From an uncultured Candidatus Saccharibacteria bacterium (GTDB lineage: Bacteria > Patescibacteriota > Minisyncoccia > Phycocordibacterales > WO2-35-19), in NCBI GenBank assembly GCA_964455485.1, contig CAYVXT010000003.1:1-41298 (forward strand): a DNA stretch of 41,298 nucleotides. Direction: 5' to 3'. The notes under the pieces are model-generated. The model ran no database searches. It saw nothing but the letters and a program-made list of their open reading frames with translations, and was not told where the DNA came from. Positions 8,576-34,376 of this stretch are shown here, in pieces. The stretch's first letter is position 1, and the number at the start of each line of letters is the position of its first letter. Both the position numbers and the translations under genes were made by a program.

Positions 8576-8811
8576 TGCTCCGGGAGGAAAAGCGTGGGAC
8601 GCTTTTCCGTCAGGATTCGAACGACGGAGAGGGACCCGCTTTAGCAAAAGCGGGAGCGAGTCGGTGCCCAGACCAAAAAAGTTTTGACGAAAACTTTTTG
8701 AGTCGAGGGTGAGCTTGGGGTGGGACCCAAGCGCAAGACTTATTGAGACTGAACAAAGTGAGGTCCAATAAGTAGACAGCTTCTGTAAGAAGAAATTCCT
8801 GCCCGGCGCAC
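8576..8811 (+). ncRNA. TEC-Tyr-L: long tRNA-end-capped structured RNA (group-I-intron-like core?)
   Basis: 5' TGCTCCGGG pairs with 3' CCCGGCGCA. CAGGATTCGAAC (8611-8622) is the reverse complement of GTTCGAATCCTG in tRNA-Tyr. Three hairpins have compensated stems relative to the 39.1-kb copy. The last 15 nt (8797-8811) are identical to tRNA-Tyr 8523-8537. Confidence 0.65.
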
Positions 8812-9808: not shown

Positions 9809-9837
9809 TTTACACCCATTGACTTTTAGTGTATAAT
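9809..9837 (+). promoter_or_regulatory. Promoter TTTACA-N17-TATAAT for the 9871 cassette
   Basis: TTTACA at 9809-9814 and TATAAT at 9832-9837. AAGGAG lies 7 nt before the ATG. Confidence 0.6.
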
Positions 9838-9870
9838 TTGCTATTCTTATCTTAGAAAAGGAGCATACAC

Positions 9871-10371
9871 ATGACGACACTTCAGGTGTGGAAGAAGGTC
9901 CCGACGATCAAAGGTGCCTCCAGAATGAAAGAGTTGATTGCGATTGTAGGAAAAAGCTGTGTCATCAGACCGGCAGCACGAGAGTTGTGCGAGCGAGTAG
10001 AGGAAAAATTCTCGCTTCCAGCCGGCGACACCAGCGTAGCTCTTCTCTCGATGGCGGATCTTGGCTTCAGCCAGGGTGTGCCATTCTACGAGTTCTACGA
10101 TCGCGCTGCGGAACAGGGCTACCAACTCTGCACTCCCGAAGTGGGATTGCTGATCAGGAAAGCCTTCAGTAAAGGAGAGCAGCACTCCCGTCCCGACCGC
10201 AGTTTCCGTTGCATTTATGTGGCAATGGAACCTGTCGAAATCGGTATCGGCGAAACCGCTGTCCTTTCGTTGGAAGTCACCGACACCGAAGCTGAATTAC
10301 GTGCGGCACGATGTATGCCGCAGACAGCTTTCGGACCGTCGGAGAAGTGGGCTTTCAAGGTTCCTGCTTAA
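9871..10371 (+). CDS. Hypothetical protein (GC-rich cassette)
   Basis: 166-aa ORF with a strong SD. No recognisable motif. Confidence 0.6.
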   Translation: MTTLQVWKKVPTIKGASRMKELIAIVGKSCVIRPAARELCERVEEKFSLPAGDTSVALLSMADLGFSQGVPFYEFYDRAAEQGYQLCTPEVGLLIRKAFSKGEQHSRPDRSFRCIYVAMEPVEIGIGETAVLSLEVTDTEAELRAARCMPQTAFGPSEKWAFKVPA

Positions 10372-10492
10372 GATCCTTAAACTGGGGCCAGTTTCGGCTG
10401 GCCCTCCTACCAGAGTTTTTCAGAAATGGAGAATTGCGGTGGGAGACTGCAAATCCCTAAATCTCAGATCTGTACTTTCAAAGGAGAAAGTC

Positions 10493-10840
10493 GTGAGCTT
10501 ACTTAGTCGATTGATCTACATGTATTTCCGCATCGCACTCTTCTTCGGAAGAGAGATGCACGTCTACAACGTGAGCAGCCGCTGGGGCTCGAGGACTGAC
10601 AGGATTCCGCATCGCTACAACGCGGCGTGGGAAATCCAGAAGGTTCTGGAGAAGAAGGGTTGGCCCCGCTGTGCGTTCTGTGGCTGGGTAACCAAGGAGT
10701 TCGACGAGCACCTCAAAACGGGCGAAGGATACTGCTACCAGCAGTCCATCGGCAACCCCGGAGTGCCGTGGGATCAGGAACCTGACCCACAGCTCTCCTA
10801 CGACAAGATGCCTGATCGGCTCCGTCACTGGCCGGCGTAG
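10493..10840 (+). CDS. Hypothetical Cys-containing protein (GC-rich cassette)
   Basis: The GTG start follows AAAGGAGAAAGTC. The in-frame upstream part of the tracked ORF lacks an SD. A CAFCGW motif is present. Confidence 0.5.
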   Translation: MSLLSRLIYMYFRIALFFGREMHVYNVSSRWGSRTDRIPHRYNAAWEIQKVLEKKGWPRCAFCGWVTKEFDEHLKTGEGYCYQQSIGNPGVPWDQEPDPQLSYDKMPDRLRHWPA

Positions 10841-10945
10841 AAGTTCTTTCTTGGGCGAGTCAGAAATGATTCGCCCTTCCATCAAAGTATTTTTCTTTAA
10901 GAATATTTTGATGGGAGTAAAATCCGAGTTCTTTAGGAGATGAAT

Positions 10946-11161
10946 ATGGCAAATTACGAAGTTTGGTATACGGAAATTCGATACCGTGACCAAACACGCA
11001 CCTGGATGACTTCTTCTGATCGAAAGTCGACTCCTTTCGAGGAGTCGAGCGATGAGAAAGCGAGAGAGATCGCAAAAGCGCTCATGAACGCGCCGAGCGA
11101 TGATCCTCTTGTAGACAGGAGAATTCCTATTAAGCTCGTGAAAGTCATTGAGATCATGTAA
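10946..11161 (+). CDS. Hypothetical small protein (GC-rich cassette)
   Basis: AGGAG lies 6 nt upstream of the second ATG. The ORF is about 71 aa. Confidence 0.5.
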   Translation: MANYEVWYTEIRYRDQTRTWMTSSDRKSTPFEESSDEKAREIAKALMNAPSDDPLVDRRIPIKLVKVIEIM

Positions 11162-11175
11162 AAAGGAGCAGGACA

Positions 11176-11616
11176 ATGAAGCAAACTCTTATTCTGACTT
11201 ACAATCGGGTTCAGGGGTTCGCTCCTGGCTCGCACGGCAATGATCGCGTTGTGATCCACAAGATCGACAAAGACGCTTTCACCGAAGAAAACTACGAGAA
11301 GGCGACAGCGGCACTCCGAGCTCAGGTTTCCGTGAGTAATCCACTCGAAACTGAAGCCTACGTGTATCTGGGTTATTCGGGAGGAGAAGAGCAATACTCC
11401 CACTTGCAACGCAGGGTATTCAGAGCAGCGACAGAAACCGTCCTGGCCTTGATAAAGGAAAGGGCCCGTATTCATATTGTTGGCTGCACCTGCTTCAGCA
11501 CCAGCAAGCGGGAGTTCACTGAAGCTAGTGGCTTTGACTACATTGAAAGCAAAGAGTGTGGTGGCCATCTGAAGCTCGGCAAAATTGTCAGTGAGATTCT
11601 CAAGACTACTGCTTAG
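11176..11616 (+). CDS. Hypothetical protein (GC-rich cassette)
   Basis: AAAGGAG SD, 146-aa ORF, followed by a terminator. Confidence 0.6.
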   Translation: MKQTLILTYNRVQGFAPGSHGNDRVVIHKIDKDAFTEENYEKATAALRAQVSVSNPLETEAYVYLGYSGGEEQYSHLQRRVFRAATETVLALIKERARIHIVGCTCFSTSKREFTEASGFDYIESKECGGHLKLGKIVSEILKTTA

Positions 11617-11624
11617 ATTTACAA

Positions 11625-11668
11625 CCGCCCACACCGGGACAAAATCCGGTGGAGGGCGGATTTTGTTT
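11625..11668 (+). terminator. Terminator of the 9871-11616 cassette operon
   Basis: CCGCCCACACCGG...CCGGTGGAGGGCGG followed by ATTTTGTTT. Confidence 0.7.
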
Positions 11669-11890
11669 ATTATACTGGCCGGTCACCGGCAAGTACGGGT
11701 TGTACATCGGACTCTCTGTCTGGACTGCGGGGTTATTCACCTGGTTCTGGGCAGTGCATCGGTCGTTTTGCATCACGAGAACAGCATAATGTTTTCGAAA
11801 CCGCTTTGGGAGTCGCTCGACCCTCGGGCGGCTTTCTTCATATCTGAATTATTATCAAACTAGTTCCAACGCTACACCGGACAATACACC

Positions 11891-16047: not shown

Positions 16048-16170
16048 TATTCTAATCCAGTTAGAAAGTTTAAAAAGCGCCCGCCTTCGCTAAAGCTACG
16101 GACGGGCAAGCAGATTAAAAGTTTGCTATGGCTTTATAACTTTCAAACTTTTTAACTTTTAAACTCGATT

Positions 16171-32398: not shown

Positions 32399-32638
32399 AT
32401 GAATATAAAAAAAGATGATGAAGTGGAAATGAAGGCTAACGGGGGAGATTTGACCCAAAACCCTGAATTTAGAAGGTTTTGTCATGATATAAAAAACCCT
32501 TTGGCGGCCCTGCAGCTGCAGGTTGAAGTGCTAGAAATGAGTTTGGAAGACGATGATTATAAAGAAAAACTGAAAAGTGCAACAATCAAAATGAAGCAAG
32601 AAATTAGCAAAATGGTAGGTATGTTGGATAAAGGCTAA
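32399..32638 (+). CDS. Stand-alone HisKA/DHp-like phosphoacceptor domain protein
   Basis: The 79-aa ORF contains RRFCHDIKNPLAALQLQVEVL (H-box) and has no ATPase domain. Confidence 0.55.
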   Translation: MNIKKDDEVEMKANGGDLTQNPEFRRFCHDIKNPLAALQLQVEVLEMSLEDDDYKEKLKSATIKMKQEISKMVGMLDKG

Positions 32639-32732
32639 ATTAAAGTCATTTTTCAGCTAGCTACAAATAATGGCTCTGTTGAGCCGTTATTTTAGACTGT
32701 CCACAACAAAATAAAATATTCATGAAAAATGC

Positions 32733-32760
32733 TTGACAATTTTTGCATAACTGCTATACT
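32733..32760 (+). promoter_or_regulatory. Promoter TTGACA-N16-TATACT
   Basis: TTGACA at 32733-32738 and TATACT at 32755-32760. Confidence 0.6.
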
Positions 32761-32766
32761 AATACT

Positions 32767-33075
32767 GAATTTGAACATTGAATTTTGCAAGGTTGGGGGG
32801 AATTTTGAACCCGACCTTGCGGAGGTTGAAATGGCCGCACGTACACACTCGCCTCCGGCGCAGATGCCGGAAACAATTAATAGCCGAATGATCAGCAGCC
32901 AGGGCGCCGGCGCCGCCAGCTAGCCAACGACATCGGGCAAGCAGGCAGCATGCCGTGTTGTAGTACCGCGCTTCGCGTGAGCTAAAGCTCCCTTTTGATT
33001 AGGAGTTGGCCGCGCGAGCGCAAAACAGTCCCGTTCCCCAGTATTATCGGGGGACGGGCTGATTTATTTTATATA
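32767..33075 (+). ncRNA. GC-rich transcription unit of about 300 nt, unassigned (structured RNA or small-peptide mRNA)
   Basis: It lies between the promoter above and the terminator CAGTCCCGTTCCCC...GGGGGACGGGCTG plus ATTTATTTT. Several GC helices are visible (GCAAGGT/ACCTTGC, GGAGG/CCTCC, TCCGGC/GCCGGA). A 30-codon ORF sits behind a GGAGG SD at 32831-32923. Confidence 0.4.
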
Positions 33076-33127
33076 AAATTTTTCTTGCGCTTTGCGCTTT
33101 TCTATTTTTTACTCATAACTCACCCCG

Positions 33128-33173
33128 CTCTTCGCTAAGCTCAGAGTCGACCCTCCCTTACCTCAAGGGAGGG
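33128..33173. repeat. GC-rich mini-repeat plus perfect hairpin upstream of dus
   Basis: CTCTTCGCTAAGCTCAGAG, whose reverse complement is CTGAGCTTAGCGAAGAG, followed by CCCTCCC-TTACCTCAA-GGGAGGG. Confidence 0.5.
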
Positions 33174-33203
33174 AAAAGGCAAAACCTATGATAATATGCA
33201 AAC

Positions 33204-34376
33204 ATGGTAAATTTAGGATTTTGGAAAAAATCAAAAAGCCCAATATTGTGCTTGGCGCCGATGGCAGATGTTACAGATGCAGCTTTTAGATACATCATTG
33301 CAAAATATTCCAAACTTGCTCGAAGTCCAGAAAAAACTTCTTCGAGCGTGCCTAGCGAGCGCGACTGGCGCGAGCTCGAGGAATTTTCTAGCAAGAAAAT
33401 ATCCGTGCAAAGCGAGAAGAACGTTTTTTCTGGACTATACCCTTATGCTACTTGGACAGAGTTTGTGAGTGCAGATGGGTTGGTGAGAGCGCCGGAGGAG
33501 GGTAGGAAAAAGCTTTTGAAAGATTTGGAGTATTCTGAAATTGAAAGGCCAATAGTTGCACAATTTTTTACAAGCAAACCGGAAATGATGGAAAAGGCAG
33601 CAGCTCTAGCGGTGGAACTTGGGTTTGATGGTATTGATATAAACATGGGCTGTCCTGACAAAAGTATTGAAAAGCAAGGTGCGGGGGCTGCGCTTATAAA
33701 AAATCCAACACTTGCTAAAGAAATTATTTTGGCTGCCAAACGAGGTGTGGCCCTTCGACAAGCTCAGGGCGAACGACAACTTCCTGTATCGGTGAAAACA
33801 CGCTTGGGTTATAACAAAGATGAATTAGAAACTTGGCTACCTGCTCTTTTGGAGGCGGAGCCAGCTGTTATGACTATTCATGCGCGCACTAGGAAAGAGA
33901 TGTCAAAGGTGCCAGCAAGGTGGGAGAGGATAAGGAGAGCAGTGGAGATAAGGGATGAGATTCAAAGAACCTCACCCCTAGCCACTCTCCTAGAAGCAGG
34001 AGAGGGGAAAAACGAAGAGGGAAAGACCTTAATCTTCGGGAATGGGGATGTTTTGAGTGTGGAAGATGCATACAAAAAGTGTGCAGAAACAGGAGCAGAC
34101 GGAGCGATGCTTGGTAGAGCTATTTTTGGCAACCCGTTCCTTTTTTCGGGCCACACGCCAACTTTGGAAGAGAAGTTGAAAGTGTTGGTGGAGCATTCAA
34201 AACTTTTTGAGCAAAAACTTGGAGCCATCAAAAATTTTGCAGTAATGAAAAAACATTTTAAATCATATATAGGCAGTTTCAGTCACTCTAAAGACTTGCG
34301 CGAAAAGTTGATGGAAGCAGAGAGTGCTGGTGATGTAGAAAATGTGGTAAGTAATTTTTTGATAAGTTATAATTAG
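33204..34376 (+). CDS. tRNA-dihydrouridine synthase carrying in-frame GC-rich insertions
   Basis: Contains LAPMADVTDAAFR, DGIDINMGCP and VSVKTRLG, all Dus/FMN TIM-barrel motifs. Confidence 0.88.
   Translation: MVNLGFWKKSKSPILCLAPMADVTDAAFRYIIAKYSKLARSPEKTSSSVPSERDWRELEEFSSKKISVQSEKNVFSGLYPYATWTEFVSADGLVRAPEEGRKKLLKDLEYSEIERPIVAQFFTSKPEMMEKAAALAVELGFDGIDINMGCPDKSIEKQGAGAALIKNPTLAKEIILAAKRGVALRQAQGERQLPVSVKTRLGYNKDELETWLPALLEAEPAVMTIHARTRKEMSKVPARWERIRRAVEIRDEIQRTSPLATLLEAGEGKNEEGKTLIFGNGDVLSVEDAYKKCAETGADGAMLGRAIFGNPFLFSGHTPTLEEKLKVLVEHSKLFEQKLGAIKNFAVMKKHFKSYIGSFSHSKDLREKLMEAESAGDVENVVSNFLISYN
33315..33395 (+). repeat. 81-nt in-frame TEC-like insertion inside dus
   Basis: Terminal stem CTTGCT/AGCAAG, hairpin CTCGAAG...CTTCGAG, and GAGCGCGACTGGCGCGAG, which is nearly the same as GAGCGCGACGGCGCGAG in TEC-Asn-S. 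It encodes LARSPEKTSSSVPSERDWRELEEFSSK. Confidence 0.55.

Follow-up and report, generated by a model that had tools for sequence, protein, structure and literature searches.

The GC-rich region directly upstream of dus, at positions 32733-33071 of the window (the whole stretch of 41,298 nt that was analyzed), is tentatively interpreted here as a real, independently transcribed and family-specific micro-gene, the structured RNA of which would be translated in its 5' half and would work as a translation-coupled, cis-acting device. The probability of this reading is estimated at roughly 45%. Comparison among homologues demonstrated the conservation of the unit, its synteny, its patterns of frame and codon use and the covariation of its hairpins; transcription, ribosome pausing and any output of the unit are inferred. 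A preliminary description of the region had postulated an independent and unassigned transcription unit of approximately 300 nt, a claim which is upheld by the combination of promoter, GC-rich body and terminator. The 30-codon open reading frame (ORF) flagged in that description turned out, on comparative evidence, to be the conserved core of the unit, and a plain non-coding RNA conflicts with the comparative evidence for a reading frame under selection.

Structure and composition of the transcription unit

The region is composed of a promoter, a GC-rich body and an intrinsic terminator (Table 1). The promoter, already recognized as TTGACA-N16-TATACT in the preliminary description and confirmed here, agrees with the consensus at 11 of 12 positions, has a TG-extended -10 box and is among just 23 promoters of the full -35/extended -10 type in the genome (G000; 831 kb, 82 contigs, 98.6% complete). 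Transcription from this promoter would yield an RNA of about 305 nt. The arrangement of upstream hairpin, A-rich block and TTGACA/TG-extended -10 box is a generic strong-promoter architecture, found by the R1 model at many loci per family genome, and for this reason the conserved upstream block was rejected as a regulatory site specific to the unit.

The terminator is present, as had been claimed, and carries a U-rich tail, yet its stem consists of 13 pairs plus a bulge instead of 14 bp (3 + 10 pairs, one bulged U, loop of 9 nt). A simple terminator scan with a loop limit of 8 missed it on account of the 9-nt loop. A C-run/G-run terminator was found at the end of every homologue.

The G+C content was 0.59 over positions 32790-33065, versus 0.383 genome-wide. 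Among the 270-nt stretches of the window the unit (0.600) ranked second to positions 10571-10840 (0.611), and is not, as had been stated, the most GC-rich of all. The transcript folded into a chain of local hairpins with a z value of -4.1 with respect to shuffled sequences; since the opposite strand folded nearly as well (z -3.9), folding energy alone decides nothing. The unit is present in single copy, as positions 32766-33068 had no other match in the genome (blastn-short). The CTTCGCG-type pattern, of which one copy of a repeat had been reported, occurs nowhere else, even when up to 3 mismatches are allowed, and its loose core CTTCGC..AAGCT is the sole part that recurs, in the small palindromes located at 16085 and 33130. 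At the position of hairpin P3, which contains this stretch, GC hairpins of variable length were seen by eye in several homologues, including a 5-bp stem in locus L014.

Table 1. Features of the transcription unit and of the 16S rRNA locus (positions refer to the window unless a contig is named).
Feature	Position	Strand	Remarks
Short palindrome or terminator-like hairpin (GGCTC..GAGCC, then T-run)	32670-32689	+	Upstream of promoter; kept in all homologues
Sigma-70-type promoter	32733-32760	+	TTGACA, 16-nt spacer, TG-extended TATACT; near-invariant across 16 homologues
Predicted transcript (about 305 nt)	32767-33071	+	Start inferred from the -10 box
P1, 11-bp hairpin of the 5' untranslated region	32787-32820	+	Folds; ends directly before the AGGAG-like element
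GGAGG, Shine-Dalgarno-like element of the AGGAG (GGGAG) class	32821-32825	+	5 nt before ATG
Micro-ORF (30 codons + TAG)	32831-32923	+	G+C 0.63, GC3 0.71
Conserved-motif codons (His-Ser-Pro-Pro)	32846-32857	+	Family pattern (R/H/N)-(G/S/A)-(A/P/G)-Pro
P2, 6-bp GC hairpin	32854-32871	+	5' arm contains the invariant Pro codon
GCCGGC element	32906-32911	+	Frame closes here; stop codon at 32921-32923
P3, long GC-rich hairpin of the 3' domain	32968-33021	+	Fold; contains the CTTCGCG..GCTAAAGCTC stretch
Intrinsic terminator	33026-33071	+	Stem 33026-33061, 13 pairs, one bulge, 9-nt loop, U-rich tail
Split 16S rRNA	G000 C55:8859-11399, joined to C8	C8 reverse	Loci L122/L124; family loci L123-L143

Homologues, synteny and distribution

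No homologues were retrieved by BLAST of the unit DNA in 40 relatives, nor by nhmmer with the window sequence alone in 80 metagenome dus loci. Homologues were reached via dus synteny, by means of these 80 metagenome loci holding a Dus relative and, subsequently, of a three-sequence profile. The analogous unit found first, at locus L014, was linked to the window by nhmmer (E 4e-8), and, with the three-sequence profile, 15 or more of the 30 loci of same-family genomes proved to carry the unit upstream of dus. Reading of the remaining loci revealed diverged copies in L097, L098, L099, L100 and L119, as well as a remnant in L093. Altogether, 20 or more of the 34 family genomes, plus three metagenome contigs, have the unit immediately upstream of dus. 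When a promoter-to-ORF model was searched in 151 genomes sampled across the order, full-length matches were restricted to family f1, with none in 148 genomes of other families.

The genes downstream are constant, consisting of dus, p73 and a gene for a bPH-domain protein, while those upstream of the unit vary. The product of p73 was discarded as an RNA-binding partner, being a two-helix membrane protein of 73 aa. In several genomes of the family dus directly follows the upstream gene and the unit is missing, and the unit is consequently regarded as dispensable. In several others, insertions of palindromic elements, 100-330 nt in length, lie between terminator and dus.

Small palindromic elements with the core CTTCGCTAAAGCT were located at 33115-33175 and 16085 of the window, at 8456 of contig C11 and on contig C49; at least five contigs contain elements related to the copy that separates the terminator of the unit from dus. 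In relatives, such elements occur between unit and dus and also within the N-terminus of dus. On the upstream side, positions 32399-32638 encode a 79-aa protein with little beyond a HisKA (DHp) H-box helix (Pfam E 2e-6), which adjoins a PAS histidine kinase and is not conserved beside the unit in relatives.

Evidence for a selected reading frame

An AGGAG, GGAGG or GGGAG element precedes the ATG by 5-10 nt in nearly all homologues. Within the first 20 residues, 19 of 23 units encode the four-residue motif given in Table 1, with Arg (6 units), His (6), Asn (3) or another residue (4) at position -3 and with the final Pro in all 19 motif-bearing units (codons CCG in 11, CCC in 7 and CCT in 1). 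The Ser found at position -2 is encoded by TCG, TCC, AGT and AGC; as it spans both the TCN and the AGY codon families, selection on the motif probably operates at the amino-acid level. Despite ATG offsets of 9-42 nt, the nucleotide motif was in frame 0 in 12 of the 12 units with Ser/Ala-Pro-Pro, which implies that insertions and deletions came in threes.

The end of the frame followed a different element. GCCGGC was present in 19 of the 23 units, versus 2.0 expected, and the first in-frame stop fell within -25 to +20 nt of the first GCCGGC in 17 of these 19 (median +2), while the other two frames had a stop within the same interval in 2 and 4 of the 19 units, respectively. Because the stop tracks GCCGGC in the ATG frame only, the frame appears to be held open from the ATG to this element and closed there. 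ORF length varied from 13 to 60 codons (42-183 nt) across units, and the tails could not be aligned. According to these comparisons the only conserved coding content is the N-terminal four-residue motif, the sequence of the tail being apparently unconstrained. The GC3 value of the window ORF indicates that constraints at the RNA level would shape the same bases as the ORF. Altogether, the comparative data support a frame under selection and a translated ORF.

The products of five micro-ORFs, that of the window included, were not found in a collection of 15 billion proteins, and the micro-ORF product matched no protein family. A -1 frameshift site at the Pro codons was considered and rejected since heptamer and spacer do not fit, and so was a non-stop design of the ArfA/BrfA type, as the ORFs end well before the terminator.

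Covarying hairpins within the unit

Two hairpins of the 5' half were supported by compensatory substitutions. The consensus of P1 is GUGAG-GUUGGG / CCCGAC-CUCAC, and where relatives have GUGAG/CUCAC the window carries, as judged by eye, the compensating pair GCAAG/CUUGC. On a plain MAFFT alignment (A3), 81% of the cells of P1 were paired and both-side changes were detected in 6 of 11 pairs; the covariation score was higher than in 499 of 500 shuffles and than in all slid controls. For 8 or more units, the stem of P2 starts a single nucleotide ahead of the Pro codon. Its arms differ in sequence between genomes with complementarity kept (mean z -1.2), and compensatory changes were found in 4 of 5 consensus pairs.

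Start signals in a lineage without an anti-Shine-Dalgarno sequence

In this genome, Shine-Dalgarno-like motifs preceded 55 of 585 long ORFs, versus 49 in controls, showing no enrichment, and an ATG was no commoner after AGGAG than other triplets. Enrichment was found instead for a -10 box located 5-14 nt before the ATG (214 vs. 71 in controls) and for TGnTAnnnT located 5-8 nt before it (67 long ORFs vs. 2 in controls). The 16S rRNA, distributed across two contigs, is split after approximately position 1390, where an ORF-containing intervening sequence some 1 kb long is inserted, and its tail past helix 45 reads GGAAUAUUUCAAGGUGAA, without CCUCC. The same tail is common to 21 family genomes, in one of which (L139) a CCUCC is found some 18 nt beyond it and has the look of a remnant in decay. 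Since the 16S rRNA has no CCUCC, the GGAGG of the unit cannot be a classical Shine-Dalgarno sequence. The 30-codon ORF and its GGAGG, located 5 nt before the ATG, are confirmed, yet the label of a perfect Shine-Dalgarno sequence is doubtful in a lineage without its counterpart.

The leader before the ATG of the micro-ORF measures 64 nt, and the genome encodes EF-P. A CsrA site (ACAAGGA-like context) was rejected because the genome has no CsrA gene. No consistent intramolecular CUCC partner sequestering AGGAG was detected by eye across units, and neither the 16S tail nor its complement matched the leader consistently.

The AGGAG element is not exclusive to the unit. Of the 23 promoters of the full -35/extended -10 type, eight drive GC-rich ORFs that are AGGAG-led, including five that encode 102-210 aa, and the unit presents the same set of traits, namely a consensus promoter of its own, AGGAG plus ATG, raised G+C and its own terminator, in a genome that does not use Shine-Dalgarno sequences. 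A GC-rich island (0.50-0.61) at positions 9819-11700 of the window, behind a consensus promoter at 9819, contains two AGGAG-led ORFs assigned to no Pfam family, one of 166 aa at 9871-10371 and one of 146 aa at 11176-11616; both belong to the same class of cassettes as the unit. Small ORF-less units with the same promoter architecture were located on contigs C38 (reverse, at about 5230), C5 (reverse, at about 11257), C15 (at 6632) and C53 (reverse, at about 650). The one on C38 corresponds to a closed hairpin RNA some 100 nt in length, and that on C53 reproduces the last part of 16S helix 44 together with helix 45, with a terminator at its end.

Less likely readings: an ordinary small-protein gene or a non-coding RNA

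The abundance of such cassettes bears on the possibility that the unit is just an ordinary accessory small-protein gene of the AGGAG-led GC-rich class, whose free peptide acts via the short N-terminal motif. This remains a serious candidate, even if its odds are well below even. Frame and motif appear to be selected at the amino-acid level, as would be expected from such a gene, at least seven other AGGAG-led GC-rich ORFs lie behind full consensus promoters in the genome (including the five of 102-210 aa), and the unit has been lost in several relatives, as accessory genes are. However, only four residues are conserved, and the peptide would range from 13 to 60 aa with tails that change through indels and through extension of the frame; the stop codon is placed according to an RNA element and not the length of the peptide, the residues encoded by P2 change in step with the covariation of the hairpin, and neither a family match nor a database entry was found for the product. 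With ORF lengths so variable and tails that cannot be aligned, a free peptide appears unlikely.

The opposite alternative is a purely non-coding, structured small RNA, in which ORF and AGGAG would be incidental or would have a structural role. It would account for the high G+C, the several covarying hairpins and the RNA motifs conserved outside the ORF; moreover, it would fit an organism devoid of both anti-Shine-Dalgarno sequence and Shine-Dalgarno usage, and ORF lengths are near chance expectation for 60% G+C. Nevertheless, it is rendered improbable by the in-frame indels, by the TCN/AGY switch of the serine codons and by Pro codons that vary at the third position only, as well as by the fact that frame 0 is the only one open to GCCGGC and that ATG and AGGAG spacing is kept in nearly all units.

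Relation of the unit to dus

The position of the unit raises the question of whether it is a leader-peptide attenuator, that is, a cis-regulatory 5' region of the dus-p73-bPH operon. In every case dus is the next gene downstream of the unit, the genes on the other side being variable, and Pro codons occur in a leader ORF that is combined with hairpins and a terminator, a geometry that recalls the trp, pyrBI and mgtL leaders. Yet dus has its own TGn-extended -10 box (TAATAT; 33189-33206 of the window), 6-7 nt before its ATG, which is kept in relatives with or without the unit. A leaderless dus mRNA is implied, because the ATG of dus sits 6 nt after the TGn-extended -10. The insertions of 100-330 nt described above separate terminator and dus in several genomes, and stop codon and terminator are as little as 11 nt apart in some units and more than 100 nt apart in others. 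In constrained folds, which covered only those homologues with a correctly located terminator, the terminator stayed in the minimum-energy fold when a ribosome footprint over either the motif or the stop codon was masked, and no antiterminator alternative arose. On this evidence, control of dus by attenuation seems very unlikely.

Known RNA families and the signal recognition particle pathway

Only eight tRNAs were recovered when the window was scanned with Rfam at gathering thresholds. Positions 32600-33250 yielded nothing meaningful against Rfam up to E 10, the best match being a viral snRNA model (E 0.21) over the promoter, and ARAGORN gave no tmRNA in the window. This agrees with the preliminary description, in which the region could not be fitted by eye to tmRNA, SRP RNA, 6S RNA or a riboswitch. 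As a separate observation, a 149-nt direct repeat (90% identity) was found behind tRNA genes at positions 8657-8805 and 39174-39322.

Each of these identities was also rejected individually. tmRNA (RF00023) was detected in the window neither by ARAGORN nor by cmscan, and that of the genome is located on contig C62 (94.6 bits). SRP RNA (RF00169 / RF01854) had no match in the region (E up to 10) or in the genome, and would have no Ffh partner. For 6S RNA (RF00013) there was no covariance-model match, and the fold is a chain of local hairpins rather than a closed rod. T-box, riboswitch or other cis-regulatory leaders were likewise without a match to Rfam covariance models. RNase P RNA is encoded elsewhere, at positions 186-553 of the window. 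It is of bacterial type A, and its score of 84 bits explains why the default Rfam scan missed it, as the gathering score is 100.

Neither SRP RNA nor 6S RNA was detectable genome-wide. The Ffh M domain (PF02978) and the SRP54-type GTPase domain (PF00448) were absent from the genome, and no SRP-GTPase motifs were found in its six-frame translation. Similarly, 40 relatives of the order showed no real SRP54-domain match and no SRP RNA, while all 14 control genomes were positive in these searches. As Ffh and FtsY are absent, SRP RNA is not expected. The tmRNA and SRP RNA that had seemed to be missing are therefore accounted for, the former by its location on another contig and the latter by its absence, together with Ffh and FtsY, from the genome and the 40 relatives. 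Judging from these genomes, the SRP pathway looks as if it had been lost across the whole order. Literature searches on SRP loss or anti-Shine-Dalgarno loss among Patescibacteria turned up no relevant paper.

A divergent housekeeping RNA (SRP RNA, 6S RNA, tmRNA or RNase P RNA), suggested by a GC-rich unit of about 300 nt with a strong promoter in a genome where SRP RNA and 6S RNA are undetectable, can practically be dismissed, as tmRNA and RNase P RNA are located elsewhere, SRP RNA is not expected without Ffh and FtsY, no Rfam match was obtained even at E 10, the fold is a chain of local hairpins with no closed rod, and the unit is confined to one family and lost in some of its members.

Proposed mechanism and significance

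Under the preferred reading of a translation-coupled device, the strong promoter would give rise to a transcript of about 305 nt beginning with P1, the AGGAG-type element and the ATG. A ribosome would load there and slow or pause at the x-x-Pro motif and the P2 hairpin, the foot of which would be formed by the invariant Pro codon. The ORF would then be kept open through free sequence until the ribosome terminates on the GCCGGC helix, with P3 and the very stable terminator following. It would be the passage of the ribosome, rather than a folded peptide, that matters, given the four-residue core, the hairpin placed on the Pro codon, the free open tail and the stop tied to an RNA helix. The unit could act in this manner as a translation sensor or as a self-stabilizing dual-function RNA, in which translation sets the fold or the lifetime of its own 3' domain.

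Several observations weigh against this interpretation. In the homologues the terminator stays folded with the footprint at motif or stop, and no output was found; dus keeps its own extended -10 box whether or not the unit is present, and the unit, missing upstream of dus in several family genomes, is dispensable. Arg occupies the first position of the core in only 6 of 19 units, in spite of being irreplaceable in characterized RAPP peptides, and the motif lies 3-14 residues from the N-terminus, a shorter distance than in the arrest peptides studied. In addition, the ribosome would have to load on a 64-nt leader in a lineage without an anti-Shine-Dalgarno sequence. A more specific version, in which the unit would be a self-contained translation sensor where AGGAG recruits the ribosome without a 16S anti-Shine-Dalgarno sequence, the N-terminal R/H-x-x-Pro core in its hairpin arrests or slows it, and termination on GCCGGC sets the fold or lifetime of the 3' portion, is considered unlikely as a whole.

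As a small promoter-ORF-terminator cassette the unit is ordinary; it is unusual in its family-wide synteny, in its interlocked coding and RNA constraints and in its conserved AGGAG, present in a lineage without an anti-Shine-Dalgarno sequence. It represents an undescribed and unannotated gene family, absent from Rfam and from the collection of 15 billion proteins and distributed over at least 10 genera of an uncultured family of Patescibacteria, and it offers an unusually clear comparative case for a translated micro-ORF within a structured RNA. To date it also provides the best-conserved instance of a paradox, in that an AGGAG "ribosome-binding site" appears to be under purifying selection where the 16S rRNA has no anti-Shine-Dalgarno sequence and ordinary genes are leaderless. 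The unit is small enough for in vitro tests, which could reveal a second route of initiation as well as pausing at very short N-terminal x-x-Pro cores. If the translation-sensor reading were true, it would provide a compact handle on the translation of AGGAG-led genes in Patescibacteria devoid of an anti-Shine-Dalgarno sequence.

Comparison with known systems

The closest resemblance of the peptide is to the RAPP-like and SecM-type arrest peptides (ApdA, ApdP, ApcA, SecM; PMC12992588, PMC10951233), which share with it a four-residue core that opens with a basic or polar residue, continues with two residues that are small or Pro, and always ends in Pro. RAPP, RGPP, RAGP, RSPP and HGPP cores arrest ribosomes, the Pro-tRNA in the A site failing to react (PMC12992588). 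RSPP and HGPP, obtained from random screens, do so as well, although the rule for RAPP-like cores is Arg-(Ala/Gly)-Pro-Pro, RAGP or RAPG, and the Arg of the core is irreplaceable in the characterized RAPP peptides (PMC12992588). In arrest peptides, as in the unit, the sequence outside the core can vary freely and the small ORF lies upstream of other genes. In contrast, Arg is found in only 6 of the 19 motif-bearing units, with His in the window, while the final Pro is found in all 19; the core follows the N-terminus by only 3-14 residues, that of arrest peptides being close to the C-terminus, and the ORF, unlike those of arrest peptides, has no signal or transmembrane segment. No sequestered downstream start that a stalled ribosome might unmask was seen, dus being leaderless with its own promoter. 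Considering that most units, including that of the window, do not have the irreplaceable Arg, the unit was not filed among the RAPP-like arrest peptides.

The trpL, pyrL and mgtL/mgtP Pro-codon leaders likewise precede an operon and consist of a short ORF, in which certain codons are diagnostic, with hairpins and an intrinsic terminator behind it, and the stop position of leader-peptide attenuators is tied to an RNA helix, as in the unit. The differences reside in the alternative antiterminator, which was not found here, in the leaderless promoter that the downstream gene has of its own, and in the dispensability of the unit in relatives. Dual-function small RNAs (SgrS/SgrT, RNAIII/hld, SR1/SR1P) are similarly small, structured transcripts with their own promoter and terminator and a translated micro-ORF, but their peptides are conserved over the whole length, whereas conservation of the peptide in the unit is limited to the four-residue motif. 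At the RNA level, conserved motifs are present in the 3' domain of the unit.

Finally, the unit has in common with the other AGGAG-led GC-rich cassettes the full -35/-10 promoter, AGGAG plus ATG, the raised G+C and a private terminator, and in their hosts the core genes are AT-rich and leaderless and the 16S rRNA has no anti-Shine-Dalgarno sequence. Unlike those cassettes, the unit consists of a micro-ORF at one syntenic site in at least 10 genera, with covarying RNA hairpins and a stop codon tied to an RNA motif.
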